NCBI GenBank assembly: GCA_964649615.1
Contig: CAZYPW010000006.1
Span: 12,635-76,634, forward strand
Source of the DNA: an uncultured Gammaproteobacteria bacterium
GTDB taxonomy: Bacteria; Patescibacteriota; Microgenomatia; Daviesbacterales; UBA10151
Length of the DNA stretch: 64,000 nucleotides
Direction: 5' to 3'
The notes beneath the pieces are model-generated. The model ran no database searches. It was not told the DNA's origin and was given only the letters and a program-made list of their open reading frames with translations. Positions 2 to 32,427 of the stretch are shown one piece after another (position 1 is the first letter of the stretch; each line of letters begins with the position of its first letter). A program made the translations under genes and the position numbers.

Positions 2-961
2 ACAGCTATTTCTGCTTCAGTTGACCAGAGATTGGAAACTTCTACCAGGGTCACTGTGACTTTGGATGATGGAAAAACTGTGGCTGATAACTGTGCTGTT
101 AATACCACCACCCTTACTTTTACAGCCAGAAACCAGTGCATCAAAGACAATAATTTTGCAGCTTCTAATGTGGATGTAAAAATCTTTGAAAATGGTTCAG
201 AACCAATCTTTAGGCAACAAATCAGGTTGGATAAAGATGGCAAGCCTCAAAGCTTTGCTCCTAAGCTGGAAAAAAATAAAAAATATACCATGCTTCTTAA
301 AGCTCCTGGAGCTTTAGCTAAAAAAGTAGAATTTAATACAGGATCAAATAATACCACCATTATTGATCCATTTACTTTGGCTGTAGGAGACATCTATCCC
401 AGGAATAATCCTGATGGATCAGTGAATAACTTTGATATTTCTGAGTTAAAAAGGCAGTGGGCTCCCACTAAAGATACCCAAACTAATGCAGATTTAAATA
501 ATGATGGCAGGGTGAATAATGTAGATTGGTCCTGTTTAAGGCTTAATGTGGGTAAATCAGATGAGGAATTCACTCCTTCTCAAACTTCCCCTCAAACTGT
601 CAAAATAGGCAATAAAGGCAAAGTATTTATGGATACTAATTTGGATAAGGCTCTAAGTTCAGGAGAGCAAACAATTGCTGGAGCAGTAGTTAAGTTTTTG
701 AAAGTGCCAGACAGCCATGTGGTTGGTGAGAAGTTAACTGCCACAGAGCTTGCTGCCTCCTTAGTTTTAGCCCAGGCTACCTCAGATGCTTCTGGTTCTG
801 TTGATATTCAAGTTTCCAGGACAGCTCCGGTAGTGGGGAATTTTAGCTTTGTAGTGGATCCTGGAGCAAATACTGGAAAAGGCGGTGAATTAGATTGGAA
901 AATACTGGAACCTCTTAATGCAGATTCAATCCAGTCTTTTAATATAGCTGTTGAGCCATAA
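2..961 (+). CDS. Secreted dockerin-containing protein, probably 5'-partial. The frame is open back to the window start and the first in-frame start is TTG at 32
   Basis: Two tandem Ca-binding dockerin repeats, NPDGSVNNFDISEL and NNDGRVNNVDWSCL, at about nt 404-557. Ser/Thr-rich, no TM. Confidence 0.55.
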   Translation, partial: TAISASVDQRLETSTRVTVTLDDGKTVADNCAVNTTTLTFTARNQCIKDNNFAASNVDVKIFENGSEPIFRQQIRLDKDGKPQSFAPKLEKNKKYTMLLKAPGALAKKVEFNTGSNNTTIIDPFTLAVGDIYPRNNPDGSVNNFDISELKRQWAPTKDTQTNADLNNDGRVNNVDWSCLRLNVGKSDEEFTPSQTSPQTVKIGNKGKVFMDTNLDKALSSGEQTIAGAVVKFLKVPDSHVVGEKLTATELAASLVLAQATSDASGSVDIQVSRTAPVVGNFSFVVDPGANTGKGGELDWKILEPLNADSIQSFNIAVEP

Positions 962-1004
962 ATAATATGTTGCAAACAAAGCATAAATAGCTTAGTCTAA
1001 AATT

Positions 1005-1595
1005 ATGGATAATATAAAAAAATTATTAACCAAAAAAGTAATCTTGGGAATATTTGCGGTCGTTATTGGGATAGAGTTAATTTGGGCAGCTACTGTTTTA
1101 TTTAAACCCACTTCTCAACCATCTTTGGTAACAAATCAAACAGTTAACAAACAATCAACCACTATTAAATTAGAAACTCAAACACCCCAAGTTAAAGTAG
1201 GCAGCAAGTTTACTGTTTCCATTCAAATGGTTTCAGATAAATTTACAGATGGTGCAGATATATTACTTAGTTATGATCCTAATGTTTTATCTTTAGATCC
1301 AGCGGGAAAAGAGGCTGTGCCGGTGATTTTGGGCGGGCTTTATAATGAATATCCTCTTAACACTGTGGACGCCAAGTTAGGCAAGGTGGCTGTCTCAGGG
1401 ATTGCCACAGAAGATAGTGGAATTTTAGCTAATGGGTTATTTGGTTCGATGGTATTTACTGCAAAAGTAGCAGGCAACAGCCAAATTAGTGTAGATTTCA
1501 CAGAGGGTTCTACCAAGGATTCAAATGTAATAGAAACAGGTACAGGAGAAGATATTTTAAGTAAAGTTGAGAATTTGGAGGTAAATATAGAATGA
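1005..1595 (+). CDS. Cohesin-domain protein with N-terminal TM anchor
   Basis: N-terminal hydrophobic helix. The central domain matches type-I cohesin sequence features (LSYDPNVLSL; ATEDSGILANGLFGSMVFTAKV), as in CipA-type cohesins. Confidence 0.6.
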   Translation: MDNIKKLLTKKVILGIFAVVIGIELIWAATVLFKPTSQPSLVTNQTVNKQSTTIKLETQTPQVKVGSKFTVSIQMVSDKFTDGADILLSYDPNVLSLDPAGKEAVPVILGGLYNEYPLNTVDAKLGKVAVSGIATEDSGILANGLFGSMVFTAKVAGNSQISVDFTEGSTKDSNVIETGTGEDILSKVENLEVNIE

Positions 1596-2398
1596 AACTC
1601 AAAGCTCAAAACTCAAAGCTCAAAACTATAACAACACACCTAATTAAACTAAAGTTTAATTGCAAAAAGTTAAAACTTTTTAGTCTTACACTGTTGCTTT
1701 GCACTTTAACTTTTACACTTTCAGCTTTTCCAGCTTATGCCCAGTCTGCTACCCTGTCCCTCTCCCCTTCCACTGGGACTTATAACAAAGGCTGCAACTT
1801 TCCTTTGGAAGTTAAATTAAATACCGGGGGTGCCCAAACTGATGGAACTGATGCCATTATTTTGTATGATACCTCCAGAGTTTCTGCTACCTCAATAAGC
1901 CCCAATCTGTCTGTTTACCCAGACTTTCCAGGCAACAGCATTGATGAGGGGTCTGGCAAAATTATTATCTCCGGGGTTGCTTCTATCTCTGGATCATTTT
2001 CTGGAAATGCTACTTTAGCCACTATTCAATTTAGCGTTAAAGAAAATGCTTCAACTGGTGCTACTCAGATCAGGTTTGATTTTGATCCTAATGATAAAGC
2101 TAAAACCACAGATTCAAATGTAGTAGAAAGAGGCACTGTAGCTGATATTTTATCTTCAGTTGTGAATGGGAACTATACCATTGGAACTGGAGCTTGTGAA
2201 GCAACAGGTACTGGCACAGGAACTGGAACTGGTACCGGGACTGGATCAAAAGGAGGAGTAGAAGATTCAACTCCCTCTGCTGAGTTTATTCCCCTTAAGC
2301 AGCTTCCTCCTGCAGGATCTGAGCAGCTAACTTTTACGCTAGCCATAGTGGGGATGGTTTTAACTATCTTAGGTGTCTTGGGATTGGCTCTACTGTGA
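1592..2398 (+). CDS. Cohesin-domain surface protein with signal peptide, (Thr-Gly)n linker and C-terminal TM anchor
   Basis: Signal peptide ending AYAQS. Cohesin-like core (ILYDTS; IQFSVKENASTGATQI). GTGTGTGTGTGTG linker. C-terminal LPPAG plus a hydrophobic helix. Confidence 0.55.
   Translation: MKLKAQNSKLKTITTHLIKLKFNCKKLKLFSLTLLLCTLTFTLSAFPAYAQSATLSLSPSTGTYNKGCNFPLEVKLNTGGAQTDGTDAIILYDTSRVSATSISPNLSVYPDFPGNSIDEGSGKIIISGVASISGSFSGNATLATIQFSVKENASTGATQIRFDFDPNDKAKTTDSNVVERGTVADILSSVVNGNYTIGTGACEATGTGTGTGTGTGTGSKGGVEDSTPSAEFIPLKQLPPAGSEQLTFTLAIVGMVLTILGVLGLALL
2205..2246. repeat. ACNGGN hexamer repeat encoding (Thr-Gly)7
   Basis: Linker in the cohesin surface protein. Confidence 0.85.
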
Positions 2399-4296
2399 AG
2401 ATACTAATATTCTTATTTATATTTTTCTTGCTTCCCTCAAATGTTTTTGCCCAAAATGCACCTTGTGCAGCAGAAACTACCAAATGCGGGCAGCCTTCAT
2501 ATGCTAATTGTTCTTCTGTCCAATATGAAACTGATGGCAGGGCTTTTTATACCTGCACCCAATCAAATAACCCAAACTGTGCAGGGACTATATATTGTGC
2601 TTCTGAAAATAAATCAACTTACCAGCCTCCTGTAGCTGTTCCTGCTTCTGCTGTTTGTACACCCAACGCTTTTGATGCTTCCTTATGCAGAAGGTGTGCC
2701 TCAGATGGAAGCAGATGGGGTACCAACGGTTCTGATTTTGGCACTAATTATGGTTCAAAAGCGTGGTGCAGTTGTGCCAAGCAATATGATCCTTCTGTCT
2801 ATGGGCAATCATGTAATCAGCCACCAACTGGGGTAGGAACGACCAATCCGCCTTCAGAGCCAGTGGGAGTAGGAAAAACCACGCCTGTATCTGTCCCACC
2901 AATTACTGTTACCAAAATACAAATTAATGGGCAGGATTTAGATCTAAATGGCAGTTTAAAACTCACTCTGCCAGAAACAATAAAAGAATCTGATGTACAA
3001 AATAAAATTGATGTGACTTACTCAGACAATTCAACAAAATCCTTCTTTATTACCTTTCATTACACACCAAAAATTGATCCAGTTATAGAAGCAGAAAATC
3101 AAACAAAAGATGTAGGTGTATTAGTTTTAAAATATTTCCCATTGGATAGTAGCGGTGCAAATCTTAATTCAAATATTACCGGCATGAGCACCAGTTTGGC
3201 GGCTATTAAGCAATATGTTAATACCCTAACTTTGAAGTCCTTGAATGTCCTAACGGAGGCGAGTATCTACCATGGTTTCAAAAGCAAGTCAACCCCTGCA
3301 TTGAAATATAAACTGGTAGATACAAAGGAGTATCAATTACCCCTGCCTGTTTCGTCAGATAGAGTTCCCTGGAATACTGATAGCTTTAGGCCAGATTACA
3401 AAAAAATGTTAAATGATATAAATATCTGTGATTATGTTGAAAATAGAAATGTTAAACAAGTTTGGGTGTGGGGTTATCATACAAAGGTTATAGAACCAGC
3501 AGAGTCAAATATGTCTATGGGCAGAGATTCAAGCTCATTTTGGCCACAACAAACTTATGGAGATATTAGTAATAGTGAAAGAAGTGATGATTTACCGATT
3601 TGCCAAAAAACCTATGTACTTTATAACTATAATTATGAACGTGGGCTTGGCGAGGTTTTAGAAGACCACGGCCATCATATAGAAGCTGTTTTAAGTTATG
3701 TTAATTACGATCTTTTTTGGAATTACTTCGTTAGGCCTCATGGAACTCAAGACGGGGTGAATAATTGTGGATGGATGCATGCTCCTCCTAATGTAACAGA
3801 TGAAGATCAATATAACTGGACAAGTAAGTTTAGGGTTCAGTCTGCTTGCTCAGACTGGAAGCCGGACGGATCTGTATCAACCAAAAGCATCGACTGTACT
3901 ACTTGGGCGGGAGCAGACTGTACTAATGATATGGGGGCTAGTTTTAAGGTTTGGTGGATGCAGAATTTACCTGGAATGGATAATGGTTTAACTTATCAGG
4001 GAAGAAAGTTAAGGAACTGGTGGGTTTTTATTGGTGATTTTGATAATGCCATAGCTTCTGGAAAAGCCTTAACTGCTAAAACTCCAACTGAAGCAAGGAC
4101 ACTTTTTAGAACTCAATCAGCGCATACAGAAACCCAATATATCCCTCCTGCTTCCCTGCCGCATCCTCACGAACCGGTTGAGATACCTGAAGTACCCAGT
4201 GCACCTGAACCTTTAGAATTAATAGATTTTAACAGTGATGGGCAGATCAATGTTTTTGACCGGATTATATATGTTAGAAAACAGTTAGGGTTATGA
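2395..4296 (+). CDS. Large Cys-rich secreted protein with C-terminal dockerin-like repeat
   Basis: GTG start overlapping the upstream stop. Signal peptide, many Cys in the N-terminal 150 aa, C-terminal DFNSDGQINVFD Ca-loop motif. The passenger domain is unassigned. Confidence 0.5.
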   Translation: MKILIFLFIFFLLPSNVFAQNAPCAAETTKCGQPSYANCSSVQYETDGRAFYTCTQSNNPNCAGTIYCASENKSTYQPPVAVPASAVCTPNAFDASLCRRCASDGSRWGTNGSDFGTNYGSKAWCSCAKQYDPSVYGQSCNQPPTGVGTTNPPSEPVGVGKTTPVSVPPITVTKIQINGQDLDLNGSLKLTLPETIKESDVQNKIDVTYSDNSTKSFFITFHYTPKIDPVIEAENQTKDVGVLVLKYFPLDSSGANLNSNITGMSTSLAAIKQYVNTLTLKSLNVLTEASIYHGFKSKSTPALKYKLVDTKEYQLPLPVSSDRVPWNTDSFRPDYKKMLNDINICDYVENRNVKQVWVWGYHTKVIEPAESNMSMGRDSSSFWPQQTYGDISNSERSDDLPICQKTYVLYNYNYERGLGEVLEDHGHHIEAVLSYVNYDLFWNYFVRPHGTQDGVNNCGWMHAPPNVTDEDQYNWTSKFRVQSACSDWKPDGSVSTKSIDCTTWAGADCTNDMGASFKVWWMQNLPGMDNGLTYQGRKLRNWWVFIGDFDNAIASGKALTAKTPTEARTLFRTQSAHTETQYIPPASLPHPHEPVEIPEVPSAPEPLELIDFNSDGQINVFDRIIYVRKQLGL

Positions 4297-4297
4297 T

Positions 4298-4558
4298 ATG
4301 AACCAAAAAGGGTTAGCACATATTATTTTAATAATTATCCTGGTAATAGGTTTAATTGCTGTCCTGTATTTAGTGCAGCATCCTCAAATCTTCAAACCAA
4401 AAGCATCTTCAAATCCTGTTTTGGATGCTTTTGAGATCAAAGATGCTGAAGGTAATTTGCTCACCTGTGATAGTAATGCTAGTCCTCCAGTCTGTACTAC
4501 TTCTACAGAAGAGGTAACTATTACAGTCAAAGATTTAGAGGCTTTAATACCAGAGTAA
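4298..4558 (+). CDS. Small membrane/secreted protein, hypothetical
   Basis: N-terminal TM helix. Tightly coupled downstream of the dockerin protein. Confidence 0.4.
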   Translation: MNQKGLAHIILIIILVIGLIAVLYLVQHPQIFKPKASSNPVLDAFEIKDAEGNLLTCDSNASPPVCTTSTEEVTITVKDLEALIPE

Positions 4559-4580: not shown

Positions 4581-5504
4581 ATGGCTGCCCAACTATCCTC
4601 CTTAATTACTGATTTTTTAGAATACTTAGAATTAGAACGCAATGCTTCTCAACTGACTATTAAAAACTATAGCCATTATTTAAAGAGATTTTTACTCTTT
4701 GCAGGAGATATTACACCTTCAGAAATTGATTTAAGTTTGGTCAGAAAATATAGGCTGTATCTGGCCCGTTTTACTGATCCTCAAACACACAAAGGCTTAA
4801 AAAGAATTACCCAAAATTATTTTATGATTGCTCTAAGGGCATTTTTAAGGTATTTAGCCAGAGTTGATATTGATACCATATCTCCAGAGAAAGTAGAGCT
4901 TGGCGGGTCAGATCCCAGGCCGCTAAAAGTGTTAGATGAGGCTCATTTAAAATCTTTGCTAGAGGCTTCAGATACCACTAAAAAAGATGGAATCAGGGAT
5001 AGATGCATACTGGAGATGCTATTTTCCACAGGTTTGAGGGTTTCAGAGCTAGCTTCTTTAAATAGGGATACTATTAATTTAAATAGAAGAGAGTTTGGGA
5101 TAGTTGGTAAAGGTGGCAAAGAAAGAGTGGTTTTTATCTCTGGCTCCGCTGCAGGTTGGTTAGAAAAATATTTAAATGTCAGGAAAGACAGCTTTAAACC
5201 TTTATTTATCAGATTTCAAGGAAAGGTAGATCCTTCTAATAATGGTGAAGCTATGAGGCTAACACCAAGGTCTATAGAAAGAATTGTAGAAAAATATGTG
5301 AAAAAGTTAGGGCTTCCTATTAAAGCTACTCCCCATACCTTAAGGCACTCTTTTGCTACAGATTTATTAATCAATGGAGCAGATATCCGCTCTGTCCAGG
5401 AAATGCTGGGCCACTCCTCTATCCAAACCACCCAAATTTATACCCATGTCACCAATCAACACTTAAAAGACGTCCACAAAGCATTTCATTCAGGAAATAA
5501 ATGA
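4581..5504 (+). CDS. xerC: Tyrosine recombinase XerC/XerD family
   Basis: Phage-integrase catalytic motifs: HTLRHSFAT, LLINGADIRSVQEMLGHSSIQTTQIYTHV. Confidence 0.85.
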   Translation: MAAQLSSLITDFLEYLELERNASQLTIKNYSHYLKRFLLFAGDITPSEIDLSLVRKYRLYLARFTDPQTHKGLKRITQNYFMIALRAFLRYLARVDIDTISPEKVELGGSDPRPLKVLDEAHLKSLLEASDTTKKDGIRDRCILEMLFSTGLRVSELASLNRDTINLNRREFGIVGKGGKERVVFISGSAAGWLEKYLNVRKDSFKPLFIRFQGKVDPSNNGEAMRLTPRSIERIVEKYVKKLGLPIKATPHTLRHSFATDLLINGADIRSVQEMLGHSSIQTTQIYTHVTNQHLKDVHKAFHSGNK

Positions 5505-25142: not shown

Positions 25143-26849
25143 ATGTTTCAAGCTCCTGCCCAAAATACAATTGAGGACATCCTTTTTAAAGAAGGCCTGC
25201 TGTCTAAAGAACAACTGGCAGCTATCAAATTAGAAAGTATTAACTTGGGTCAACCTATTGATAAGTTAATCCTGCAGCACAATTTAGCTCCCATAGACAG
25301 AATTATCCAGGCTAAAGCCCAGTTGTTGAATGTCCCTTTTATGAAGCTGGAAGGAAAAGCTATCTCTGCTGAGGTTTTAAACCTGATTCCTGAGGCTGCA
25401 GCCAGGCGTTATACCATCATCCCTTTTGAGAAACAGGGTGATGAGCTTTGGGTAGCCATGGCAGATCCCTTAGATATTCAAATAATCCAGTTTATAGAAA
25501 AAAGATCTGGCAAAAGAGTTAAACCCTATTTAGCTTTGCCTGAAGATATTTTAAAAGCCATCTCTGACCAATATGCCCAAAATTTAACCTCTGAAGTTAC
25601 TTCTGCTTTAAAGGAAGTTCAATCAGTAAAACCTGAGGAAGAAATCTCAACTGGCCCTCAAATAATCAGAGAAGCTCCAGTTACTAACATTGTTAACCAA
25701 CTTTTGGAATATGCTATTAAAACCCGCTCATCTGATATTCACATCGAGCCCCAGGAAGATAGGACCAGGGTTAGATATAGGATTGATGGGATTTTGCAGG
25801 AAAAAATCCTTCTTCCCAGGGGAGTTCATGATGCTTTAGTTTCTAGAATAAAAATCTTGTCTGTTTTAAAGATAGATGAAAGAAGATTGCCCCAGGATGG
25901 AAGGTTTACTTTTACCTTGGGTGAAAATGAGGTAGATCTGAGGATTTCCACAGTTCCTACTGTTTTTGGAGAAAAAGTAGTGATGAGGCTATTGCCTAAA
26001 TCCACCAATGCCCCTACTCTTTTAGAATTAGGCTTAAGAGGCAGTTCTTTAAAAGCTTTGGAGACTCAACTCTTGCGCCCTCATGGCATCATTTTAGTTT
26101 GTGGTCCTACAGGTTCTGGAAAAACTACTACTTTGTATTCAGTTTTAACTAAAATTTCCACCACCAAAGTTAATGTAGTGACTGTGGAGGACCCTGTTGA
26201 GTACCAGATTCCAGGTGTTAATCAGGTTCAAGTGAATCCTACAGTTGGCCTGACTTTTGCCTCAGCCCTGCGTTCATTTTTAAGGCAGGATCCAAATATT
26301 ATTATGGTAGGAGAAATCAGAGATACAGAAACAGCTGATTTGGCAATACAAGCTGCCTTAACTGGCCACCAGGTTTTTTCTACTGTTCATACTAATTCTG
26401 CCTCAGGTGCTCCTCCTAGGCTTTTGGATATGGGGGTGGAGCCATTTTTATTAACCTCCTCTTTAAATGCAGTGGTTGGGCAAAGAGTAGTCAGAAAAAT
26501 TTGCCCCCACTGTAAAATGGAATTTCCAGCCCCACCTGAGGTGGTGGAAAATATTAAATCAGTTTTGGGGAATTTTTTGCCAAAATCATTAGGCCTAAAT
26601 TTGAAGCTTTTTAAAGGGCAAGGTTGTGCCCAATGTGTTAAAACAGGTTATTTGGGCAGGGTGGGGATTTTTGAAGTGTTGGTGGTGACAGATTCTTTGG
26701 CCAAATTGATTTTAGAACATGCTTCCAGCACTGCCATTGAGCAGCTGTCAGTTTCCCAAGGCATGGTGACTATGAAACAGGATGGCTATTTGAAGGCATT
26801 GGAAGGTGTGACTACTATGGAGGAGGTGTTGCGCGTAGCGCAAGATTAA
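25143..26849 (+). CDS. pilB: Type IV pilus assembly ATPase PilB/GspE
   Basis: N-terminal T2SSE_N-like domain, Walker A VCGPTGSGKTTT, and a CxxC...CxxC tetracysteine. Confidence 0.9.
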   Translation: MFQAPAQNTIEDILFKEGLLSKEQLAAIKLESINLGQPIDKLILQHNLAPIDRIIQAKAQLLNVPFMKLEGKAISAEVLNLIPEAAARRYTIIPFEKQGDELWVAMADPLDIQIIQFIEKRSGKRVKPYLALPEDILKAISDQYAQNLTSEVTSALKEVQSVKPEEEISTGPQIIREAPVTNIVNQLLEYAIKTRSSDIHIEPQEDRTRVRYRIDGILQEKILLPRGVHDALVSRIKILSVLKIDERRLPQDGRFTFTLGENEVDLRISTVPTVFGEKVVMRLLPKSTNAPTLLELGLRGSSLKALETQLLRPHGIILVCGPTGSGKTTTLYSVLTKISTTKVNVVTVEDPVEYQIPGVNQVQVNPTVGLTFASALRSFLRQDPNIIMVGEIRDTETADLAIQAALTGHQVFSTVHTNSASGAPPRLLDMGVEPFLLTSSLNAVVGQRVVRKICPHCKMEFPAPPEVVENIKSVLGNFLPKSLGLNLKLFKGQGCAQCVKTGYLGRVGIFEVLVVTDSLAKLILEHASSTAIEQLSVSQGMVTMKQDGYLKALEGVTTMEEVLRVAQD

Positions 26850-31496: not shown

Positions 31497-31790
31497 ATGC
31501 AACAAGCATCCATGAACAAGTTCGCGCCTTCGGCACTAAAACAAGCATTTTGGGATTATAACTTTAGCGAACGTCAGCTCCTGCAAAAGCTGGAAAAAGG
31601 TACAAAAGAGGAAAAGATATGGATTATAAGAAGAATTCTGGAAAATCTCCCCTTTAAATCTATATGGAGATATACAACACCTGCACAAGTAAAAGATCTC
31701 TTCCCTTATCTTCATCTCCGTCCCAAATTTAAACAAATTTGGAGTTATACTTTGTCTTTGTGGGGAAAATATGAAAAAACCTCTCACTAA
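31497..31790 (+). CDS. Small hypothetical protein, candidate antitoxin partner of the AbiEii-like gene
   Basis: 97-aa ORF that overlaps the downstream nucleotidyltransferase gene by 20 nt. Confidence 0.4.
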   Translation: MQQASMNKFAPSALKQAFWDYNFSERQLLQKLEKGTKEEKIWIIRRILENLPFKSIWRYTTPAQVKDLFPYLHLRPKFKQIWSYTLSLWGKYEKTSH

Positions 31791-32427
31791 GCTTCAAGAA
31801 GAGGTTCTTAAAAACTTTTTTGCCCAACCAATCGGAAAATCCTACTTCCTTACTGGTGGGACTGCGCTTTCTGGATTTTACTTTTACCATCGTGAGAGTA
31901 TTGATCTTGACCTTTTCACCTTTGAAACTATTGAAATTGAGCCTGTAAGACAGATATTTCAGGCTATTGCCACAAAAGCCCGTTTACTTCTTGATCACCG
32001 TGTTGCAACAGATGGATACCATAAATTTTTCCTGACAGGCAAAAATGAGGGGCTTAAAATAGACCTAGTCCAAGATCAAAAAGTGCATTTCGGTCATATT
32101 AAGACTTTTGGAAATATAAGGGTAGATTCAATAGAAAACATTGGCAGCAATAAAATTACCGCAATTTTTGGCAGAACCGAAGCGAAAGACTTTATTGATC
32201 TTTATTTTATTCTCAAAAAAAAGCTATTTACCTTCCAAAAACTATTTCAGGATGCTAAAAAAAAGGACTTGGGTCTTTCTGAATTTTATCTAGCCCACAT
32301 GCTTCTTGAAGTAAAAAATCTAAAATATTTTCCTAAAATATTAGTTTCTTTTAACAAAGAGGACTTGGAAAACTATTTTGTCTCCATGGCCAACAAACTT
32401 CTGCTAGAAACAAAACCTAAGGAATAA
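31771..32427 (+). CDS. AbiEii/AbiGii-family nucleotidyltransferase toxin (DUF1814-like)
   Basis: N-terminal FLTGGTALSGFYFYHRESIDLDLFT is the GGTAL...RxSxDxDhF signature of this family. Confidence 0.65.
   Translation: MKKPLTKLQEEVLKNFFAQPIGKSYFLTGGTALSGFYFYHRESIDLDLFTFETIEIEPVRQIFQAIATKARLLLDHRVATDGYHKFFLTGKNEGLKIDLVQDQKVHFGHIKTFGNIRVDSIENIGSNKITAIFGRTEAKDFIDLYFILKKKLFTFQKLFQDAKKKDLGLSEFYLAHMLLEVKNLKYFPKILVSFNKEDLENYFVSMANKLLLETKPKE

Follow-up and report, generated by a model that had tools for sequence, protein, structure and literature searches.

A dockerin-cohesin-cohesin gene unit lies at the left end of a 64,000-nucleotide stretch of DNA (contig CAZYPW010000006.1, positions 12,635 to 76,634; this whole 64-kb stretch is called the window below) from a bacterium of the candidate phyla radiation (CPR), Candidatus Daviesbacteria (Microgenomates), a tiny-celled organism of groundwater. 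Five tightly spaced genes on the + strand, here called open reading frames (ORFs) A to E, span 2-4558, at positions that agree with those of an earlier note on this DNA. A encodes a dockerin protein, B and C encode one cohesin each, and the three form a lineage-wide operon; D, a Cys-rich protein with a dockerin-like tail, and E are an accessory insertion between C and xerC, the order being seen in this genome only. With confidence a little better than even, the locus is read as a conserved surface-display operon of Daviesbacteria/Microgenomates, in which cellulosome-style parts would serve an adhesin-like fibre and an enzyme-like cargo, and not the digestion of cellulose. The genes, and the parts of their products on which this reading turns, are as follows.

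2-961, + strand: ORF A, its 5' end beyond the left window edge (in-frame upstream stop absent)
392-556, + strand: dockerin module of A (visible residues 131-185; Pfam PF00404)
1005-1595, + strand: ORF B (196 aa)
1038-1103, + strand: transmembrane helix of B, a predicted signal anchor (residues 12-33), preceded by basic residues
1146-1577, + strand: cohesin domain of B (residues 48-191; Pfam Cohesin and hhalign), with a Ser/Thr/Gln linker after the transmembrane helix
1592-2398, + strand: ORF C (268 aa)
Residues 1-50 of C, + strand: Sec signal with an AYA/Q site
1748-2185, + strand: cohesin beta-sandwich of C (residues 53-198; AlphaFold2 model)
2303-2317, + strand: LPPAG motif of C (residues 238-242), after a Gly/Thr-rich linker
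Residues 248-268 of C, + strand: C-terminal transmembrane helix without basic tail
2395-4296, + strand: ORF D (633 aa)
Residues 1-19 of D, + strand: Sec signal
2647-2820, + strand: Cys-rich module of D shared with A (residues 85-142; BLASTP 3e-10)
Residues 176-232 of D, + strand: weak Rib/Ig-like domain (weak RibLong match)
3097-4089, + strand: conserved core of D (residues 235-565), followed by a Pro-rich linker
4210-4293, + strand: single dockerin-like repeat of D (residues 606-633; LELIDFNSDGQINVFDRIIYVRKQLGL)
4298-4558, + strand: ORF E (86 aa)
4581-5504, + strand: XerC-like tyrosine recombinase, the conserved downstream boundary of the block

The A-B-C order is kept throughout the lineage. 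A scan of the GTDB representatives (one genome per species) for the ORF C family gave 63 loci, nearly all from Daviesbacteria or Microgenomates; their ORFs were classified with phmmer and a dockerin hidden Markov model (HMM), and the counts given here refer to the 58 loci with a clear C-like gene. A B-like cohesin sits directly 5' of the C-like gene in 52 of the 58, a dockerin protein directly 5' of B in 44 of the 48 loci reaching that far (43 are A-like, with gaps mostly below 100 bp), and a XerC-like gene directly 3' of the C-like cohesin in 56/57. Same-strand dockerin ORFs number 57 upstream of C vs. 0 downstream, over about 448 kb on each side. Because of this synteny and of the asymmetry in dockerin position, A-B-C is taken as a real unit, an operon shared by the whole lineage; the clustering is genuine and well above chance. 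The spacing of the genes, which overlap by 4 nt at B/C and C/D and leave a gap of 1 nt between D and E, suggests translational coupling of neighbours. The terminator scan found no + strand terminator-like sites between the operon genes; promoter-like sites occur at chance frequency, and the promoter and terminator scans overall stay at chance level. The unit extends beyond the window. The L066 contig, located via contigs that encode ORF B and 100% identical to the window over 1624 nt, adds 6471 nt upstream, and the unit accordingly reaches about 6.5 kb past the left window edge; the upstream island also encodes a 766-aa Cys-rich protein and a 331-aa SdrD_B-type protein. The self-contained kit that the earlier note saw in 2-4296 is thus drawn too short on the left, where the conserved unit A-B-C continues, and too long on the right, where D and E are accessory.

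Both B and C are cohesins, by fold and by family. The ORF C family comprises at least 656 90%-identity clusters of proteins of about 240 aa, which come nearly all from Daviesbacteria, Microgenomates and Patescibacteria; nearly all homologues carry a precomputed PF00963 annotation, and some are named 'cohesin domain-containing protein' by NCBI. Pfam Cohesin matches 41/41 aligned family members at E<=0.01, the best at 1.3e-13. The AlphaFold2 model of ORF C, computed from the family alignment, shows over residues 53-198 the beta-sandwich that the earlier note had asked for as a structural check (predicted local distance difference test, pLDDT, >90), a nine-stranded jelly-roll of about 140 aa which superposes on solved cohesins. 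Its close fold matches with known structure are dockerin-binding cohesins throughout, C. perfringens and Archaeoglobus examples included. Matches of the single ORF C sequence in the PDB were dismissed as artefacts of the GS linker and flavivirus E noise. Because ORF B matches the ORF C family profile in hhalign (98.6% probability, E 1.1e-15, 33% identity over 137 columns), it is, by sequence comparison, a cohesin paralogous to C. Further cohesins were not found in the window, the family HMM matching B and C only.

B and C are predicted to be held in the cytoplasmic membrane with opposite polarity, the former by an N-terminal, the latter by a C-terminal anchor, and the signal anchor of B would place its cohesin outside the cell. 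Family, fold and topology signals hence agree with the pair of differently anchored cohesin proteins proposed earlier, one with an N-terminal transmembrane anchor, one with a signal peptide plus a C-terminal anchor. Conserved at the end of C, throughout its family, are LPPAG(S/T)E / LP[PEKDQS][AG]G[ST] and a hydrophobic helix, the basic tail being absent, and some members carry GKGPGS in place of LPPAG. NCBIfam LPXTG models gave no significant match to ORF C, and the TLxTC sortase motif was found neither in the window nor within 10 kb on either side of the 63 related loci. Since the tail is uncharged, GKGPG variants occur and no TLxTC sortase lies nearby, the end of C is tentatively read as a membrane anchor rather than as a sortase signal, which it resembles.

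The (GT)n linker of C is encoded by an imperfect ACTGGA hexanucleotide array (6 copies, 2204-2245), the sole find of the tandem-repeat scan; as the linker is not equally long in all family members, how far the anchor reaches may be tuned by slippage. The transmembrane helices of B-like proteins (window 1038-1103; L004-L065) feature a conserved buried Glu in E(V/I)(I/L)WA, a residue unusual in a simple signal anchor, which may mediate helix-helix association in the membrane.

The part of ORF A visible in the window is the C-terminal 319 aa of a secreted protein, and a homology search with this truncated fragment gave no matches. The full-length protein is 800 aa long (L066:5030-7432; window residue 1 is residue 482), and is made up, in this order, by an N-terminal signal motif, a weak PKD domain, a Cys-rich module, a TIG domain, the dockerin and a beta-rich C-terminal region. 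On the full-length protein Pfam identifies TIG (residues 434-513) and Dockerin_1 (residues 617-660), and no catalytic family. The dockerin scores 35.3 bits with PF00404, vs. a gathering score of 22.9, and aligns to positions 5-52 of the 57 in that model; in the PDB it is matched by the CelS dockerin of C. thermocellum (1daq/2mte) at E 2e-4, and a custom dockerin HMM finds it at E 8e-13. Repeat 2 is canonical (DLNNDGRVNNVD). With both repeats visible and a score above the Pfam gathering score, the module is, as far as sequence models tell, a true dockerin. It is internal, and a 134-aa beta-rich region follows it. Nine A-like proteins from other loci, 625-1248 aa in length, combine TIG, fn3 or Ig-like domains with a dockerin, and none of the nine has an enzyme domain (9/9). 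Because only Ig-type domains accompany the dockerin and no catalytic family is found, A looks like a protein of the fibrillar adhesin type.

The arrangement may work as follows. B and C would be membrane-tethered proteins presenting cohesin sockets outside the cell, and the dockerin of A would plug into the cohesin of B or C in a Ca2+-dependent manner. Docked A would form an adhesin-like fibre, tethered non-covalently, from which the Ig-like repeats and the N-terminal modules project outward. D, inserted between C and xerC here, may be retained on the same anchors via its half dockerin, so that its core, a putative secreted metal-dependent hydrolase, would be a second displayed cargo. This model, the best supported of those considered, draws on the analogy with the single-cohesin anchors OlpA/OlpC and ScaE. 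Cohesin-dockerin binding, its Ca2+ dependence and pairing specificity, the enzymatic activity of D and a role in host attachment or nutrient scavenging are what we infer beyond the domain identities, cohesin fold, topology signals, operon structure and synteny described above.

ORF D is 100% identical to NCBI HYS92_02125, a hypothetical protein of a Candidatus Daviesbacteria metagenome-assembled genome (MAG), a match that places the window in a CPR/Microgenomates genome, and has 18 Cys, 12 of them within the first 140 aa. Its tail holds one repeat only, the motif DFNSDGQINVFD followed by a helix. A custom dockerin HMM, built from the two-repeat tails of D homologues and run on the 319 ORF segments of the window, matched ORF A and ORF D only; the D tail scored 12 bits (E 0.0018 over the 319 segments), aligned to the second-repeat loop. 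In the alignment with homologues P0004 and P0051 the tail falls on their two-repeat dockerins, and most other dockerin tails of the D family carry two repeats at the aligned position. The single-repeat form is kept in four separate clusters (P0001, P0002, P0092, P0225), and is for this reason probably under selection. Lacking both a Pfam score above the gathering score and a second repeat, the tail is best called a putative conserved half dockerin, as the name 'dockerin' is not justified by model scores. The 633-aa Cys-rich protein with a C-terminal dockerin repeat of the earlier description is found again in its size, Cys content and motif, and is to be amended as to the module, which is half of one and unmatched by Pfam. 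A module of D (residues 85-142) is in common with A (residues 145-205; L066:5462-5644), the Cys residues being aligned. This Cys-rich module, roughly 60 aa in length, follows the pattern C..C...G...GS.AWC.CAK...Y...C.Q.P; Pfam does not match it, and the confidence of its model in D is low.

Among 94 homologues, which represent Woesebacteria, Roizmanbacteria, Acidimicrobiia and, of the DPANN archaea, Woesearchaeota and Aenigmarchaeota, conservation is confined to the D core (residues 235-565), with an identity near 50%. When its profile was run against 1.84 billion representative proteins, 2718 clusters matched at E<=1e-3 and, with the stricter cutoff of E<=1e-30, at least 911 50%-identity clusters; Pfam, NCBIfam and PHROGs contain no model of it. 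According to precomputed domain annotation, the core is fused among the 94 homologues to dockerins (13), type IV pilin N_methyl leaders (11), and also CARDB, fn3 and other surface modules. Because the fusion partners are varied surface modules, the core is regarded as an extracellular module displayed in several ways. Identity between the core of this CPR bacterium and those of DPANN archaea (P0009, P0010, P0053; L069, L073) is about 52%. The archaeal source of these copies is confirmed by the neighbouring genes S27e, GINS, PCNA and TFIIE, and, since the copies reside among archaeal housekeeping genes, a secreted module is taken to have passed between the domains, among ultra-small organisms of groundwater.

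The D core is modelled by AlphaFold2 with pLDDT 95-99. All of the top 50 Foldseek matches are adamalysin/ADAM/snake-venom catalytic domains, at E 1e-3 to 2e-2 and a target-normalised template-modelling score <=0.44; two fold-search methods agree on these adamalysin-type matches, which are weak. The fold search of the 2395-4296 passenger suggested in the earlier note has therefore given proteases, if weakly, and no glycosidases. The D-family profile met in the PDB only antibody light chains and cytochrome c3 noise. HExxH is found in 0/83 family members, and a Met-turn is not identifiable. Membership of the metzincins (M12B), which calls for HExxHxxGxxH and a Met-turn, was consequently rejected. 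Invariant residues of the core are W357, E370, N393, P401, Y407, H427, C458, G459, H462, N466 and W488; E430 is present in 82/83 members, and H427-x-x-E430 sits on the long helix 418-446 of the model. Tentatively, with a probability put just short of even, the core is taken for a metal-dependent hydrolase that is secreted, is built on a scaffold distantly like that of zincins, and has a non-canonical site of the form HxxE...H. H427, E430 and H462 are the putative metal ligands, and E370 the candidate base.

Whether D belongs to the cargo is a question of its own. It may instead be a freely secreted enzyme that landed here, its EF-hand-like repeat being a remnant or serving Ca2+ sensing or dimerisation; this alternative is given a real though minority share of the probability. 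Canonical dockerins require two repeats, and D has one. Pfam Dockerin does not match it even at E<=1, and the custom HMM gives it 12 bits only. D-like genes are missing from 57/58 related cohesin loci, the exception being L014, where the gene lies upstream of B. Most D-core homologues are dockerin-free, fused to other modules (pilin N_methyl, CARDB, fn3) or present as bare core, and the neighbourhoods of stand-alone cores (P0010, P0077, P0053) consist of housekeeping genes, with no functional hint. Retention on the anchors is favoured by the conservation of the single-repeat tail in its four clusters, by its alignment with the position of the full dockerin in homologues, by the Cys-rich module in common with A, and by the translational coupling of D to C that their overlap suggests. 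A C. thermocellum dockerin lacking the first Ca loop is reported by Karpol, Demishtein, Bayer and colleagues to bind cohesin reversibly all the same. A mobile-element or phage origin of D and E was also considered and rejected, as composition is unshifted and phage families are unmatched.

Some results weigh against the display reading at its centre, the A-B-C unit. Scored singly, both B (E 1.8e-3, 18.9 bits) and C (22.2 bits, just under) fall short of the gathering score of Pfam Cohesin (PF00963), which is 24.1; of the HMM check with PF00963 and PF00404 proposed in the earlier note, A alone comes through above the gathering score, B and C end below it and D goes unmatched. The profile of the ORF C family, searched against the PDB, finds no cohesin by sequence, the sole match being 7urp (E 0.005). 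The Ca-binding loop of A repeat 1 is degenerate (RNNPDGSVNNFD; NPDGSVNNFD), its position 1 not being acidic, and the missing ligand is common to all A-like proteins. The complete two-repeat Ca-binding dockerin of the earlier note therefore stands as regards score and repeats, and not as regards the first loop. Finally, a mirror-tree analysis of 43 loci correlates the A dockerin with the B cohesin (r 0.50) and with the C cohesin (r 0.38), Xer being uncorrelated; the 120 aa preceding the dockerin correlate better with B (r 0.71), and once these are controlled for, the partial r drops to 0.007 for B and 0.16 for C. The correlation was thus rejected as a sign of co-evolution at the interface. As the dockerin-B signal vanishes under this control, A and B appear to diverge together as a fast-evolving cassette, by co-inheritance, and C is the more conserved partner.

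These data bear on the possibility that cohesin-like and dockerin-like modules are co-located without binding each other, B and C being independent surface proteins (adhesins or structural proteins of the envelope) and the A dockerin a Ca2+-binding stabiliser or a glycan-binding module. The lack of an interface-specific mirror-tree signal is in keeping with this, and so is the internal position of the dockerin in many A homologues, with 60-290 aa after it. The directional clustering of dockerin genes with the cohesin pair (57 vs. 0), the gene order kept in 44/48 loci, the spacing suggestive of translational coupling, and the structurally characterised close fold matches, all of them dockerin-binding cohesins, argue for binding, and co-location alone is judged unlikely.

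The nature of the cargo varies among loci. Families of glycoside hydrolases, polysaccharide lyases, carbohydrate esterases or carbohydrate-binding modules were not found by Pfam and NCBIfam in full-length A, in D, or in the 766-aa and 331-aa upstream proteins, which bears out the earlier remark that no glycoside hydrolase is recognisable in the passengers. Cellulosomes are likewise not matched by the architecture, as each protein has one cohesin and the island proteins carry neither a carbohydrate-binding module nor a glycoside hydrolase family. Additional dockerin cargo genes lie upstream in 10/58 loci. The product of one (L054), 1422 aa long, combines Laminin_G_3 with a pectate-lyase-like beta-helix and a dockerin; that of another (L013), 491 aa long, joins a dockerin to a TIM barrel with a weak match to GH5 (E 0.004, below gathering score). 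The context called non-cellulolytic in the earlier note is, because of these two proteins, so in this window and not in the lineage. The anchors seem to take varied cargo, part of it possibly glycan-active. A genuine mini-cellulosome, in which the anchors would tether polysaccharide-degrading dockerin enzymes, the D core being of a carbohydrate-active kind that has escaped recognition, is very improbable all the same: the L054 and L013 proteins, the published interpretation of Microgenomates cohesin and dockerin genes as a cellulosome (PMC9123182), and the invariant E370 with E430, which could serve as a glycosidase acid/nucleophile pair, would suit it, and against it stand the absence of carbohydrate-active families just described, the lack of a multi-cohesin scaffoldin (B and C are single-cohesin proteins), a conserved partner A that is an Ig-repeat protein in 9/9 homologues examined, and fold searches of D that give proteases, not glycosidases.

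A bolder extension of the surface-display reading would see in the Microgenomates cohesin pair a general non-covalent anchoring platform, replacing sortase/LPXTG or S-layer homology (SLH) anchoring, with fast-evolving fibres and enzymes swapped as cassettes inside the recombinase-bracketed island. The half dockerin of D would bind in a new mode, e.g. as a dimer that rebuilds the fold of two repeats, and the D core would represent a new HxxE...H metallohydrolase family with a zincin-like scaffold, exchanged between CPR and DPANN and attacking host envelopes. Taken as a whole, this extension is doubtful.

The recombinase and small-ORF surroundings of the block recur in related loci. A diverged recombinase of the Phage_integrase family is encoded upstream in L066 (L066:1-1017), and likewise in 16/58 loci (e.g. 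L011:4897-5904, L028:5238-6239). The variable cargo-plus-cohesin block thus lies between two tyrosine recombinase genes of equal orientation, the downstream XerC-like one highly conserved, the upstream one 3-10 kb away. ORF E is made up by a lineage-typical N-terminal signal motif (...LYLVQHPQIFKPKA) and about 45 aa, and an E-like ORF also follows the D-like gene in L014. ORFs of this type, 80-100 aa long (the motif plus about 45 residues), reside beside large surface-protein genes, often translationally coupled to them, and the sequence of some is similar to the start of A-like proteins; either accessory subunits of small size or N-terminal fragments of genes may be at hand. In the motif, which many secreted proteins of the island and of related loci have in common, a basic stretch precedes a hydrophobic helix, about 20 aa long, with the end A(I/L)P(L/V)(G/T)xxL(V/A)xx(Q)QQI(F/I/L)x(S/P)(K/R)A, after which the mature protein begins. 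Far better conserved than an ordinary signal peptide, it may serve export, processing or sorting in a way particular to the lineage. Loci of Parcubacteria and Saccharibacteria feature clusters of cohesin and dockerin genes, in which some proteins have both modules, and because of these loci such clusters are not restricted to Daviesbacteria. The positions are the following.

Window 4298-4400; L066:5030-5140, 1109-1230, 3718-3830 and 4752-4900; about 25 A-like proteins in L006-L057: N-terminal motif
L066:1109-1351, L066:4752-5033, L014:9487-9789, L018:5117-5359, L005:3354-3611, L043:1385-1690, L043:2930-3229: E-like small ORFs
L060:8985-13185, L061:8660-13739, L062:6026-9297, L063:1-12266: Parcubacteria and Saccharibacteria cohesin/dockerin clusters

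On the 3' side of xerC follow genes for a small membrane protein, a P-type ATPase, an amidase, gyrA, ddl, alr, Mur ligases and gyrB. The type IV pilus locus (PilB, PilT, PilC, pilins, PilD), to which the earlier note had placed the cohesin genes next, begins at 25143 of the same window, 21 kb downstream, and cannot be called adjacent. Within its pilin cluster resides a gene for an AbiEii-type nucleotidyltransferase toxin (31771-32427). Scans for tRNA genes and Rfam families gave no matches.

Host attachment and feeding in CPR/Patescibacteria are largely unknown, and most of their surface proteins lack annotation. If true, the display reading would provide, with a cohesin pair and a dockerin-bearing fibre of Ig repeats, a concrete and easily tested mechanism of attachment and display in an uncultivated lineage, and would correct the habit of taking cohesin and dockerin matches in such genomes as signs of cellulose degradation. 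The D-core family, with a confidently modelled fold and members in both CPR and DPANN, is a good candidate for a new class of secreted enzymes of episymbionts, and the conserved single-repeat tail could inform the engineering of cohesin-dockerin pairs.

Single-cohesin surface anchors are known from cellulosomal Firmicutes, as OlpA and OlpC of C. thermocellum and ScaE of R. flavefaciens. ScaE has a signal peptide, a cohesin, a linker and a C-terminal LPXTG-type signal, and binds ScaB as well as the non-enzymatic adhesin CttA. As in these anchors, one cohesin resides here on each envelope-tethered protein, and would capture single dockerin-bearing secreted proteins; ORF C has the same layout as ScaE, from signal to cohesin, linker and a C-terminal end with an LPPAG motif. 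In contrast to them, anchoring is by transmembrane helices, SLH repeats are absent, the tail is uncharged and no sortase gene lies nearby; the locus has no multi-cohesin scaffoldin and no carbohydrate-binding module, the cargo is free of glycoside hydrolases, and the genome is a reduced CPR genome. The identity of B and C to cohesins of the OlpA/OlpC/ScaE type is 11-20% only. Modules that assemble secreted proteins outside cellulose degradation are also found in C. perfringens NanJ/NagJ and in the Archaeoglobus fulgidus cohesin. The modules of NanJ/NagJ reside on the enzymes and link enzyme to enzyme, whereas here dedicated small membrane-anchored cohesins are encoded beside their presumed ligand. 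For all three domains of life, a catalogue of cohesin and dockerin modules outside cellulosomes was reportedly drawn up by Peer and colleagues in 2009 (as cited in PMC6487960), those with partner unknown being common.

Two cases come from the same superphylum and have cohesin and/or dockerin genes. In a Microgenomates MAG (Ca. Shapirobacterales), cohesin and dockerin genes were found to be expressed and interpreted as a cellulosome (Bell et al. 2022, PMC9123182); in a cultivated saccharibacterium, epibiotic growth requires the dockerin-domain protein SEML1_0315 (Wang et al. 2023, PMC10633639). Both are one-sentence mentions, which take the modules as parts of cellulosomes or as glycan-targeting. 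In the full-text literature searched, CPR cohesins and dockerins are mentioned in passing only, and neither the A-B-C operon, nor the oppositely anchored cohesin pair, nor the Ig-repeat partner is described. The best and most consistent, if weak, structural matches of the D core are ADAM17/TACE, snake-venom metalloproteinases and CpaA; like them, the core is alpha/beta, secreted and Cys-containing, with a long helix bearing conserved His and Glu. It differs from adamalysin/reprolysin (M12B) in having H427-x-x-E430 ... H462 and E370 instead of HExxHxxGxxH, and in its length (about 330 aa vs. about 200-260 aa). The parts are known ones; new are the conserved grouping of three genes, in which two single cohesins are anchored with opposite polarity, the partner with Ig repeats, the half dockerin and the uncharacterised, zincin-like family of the cargo.

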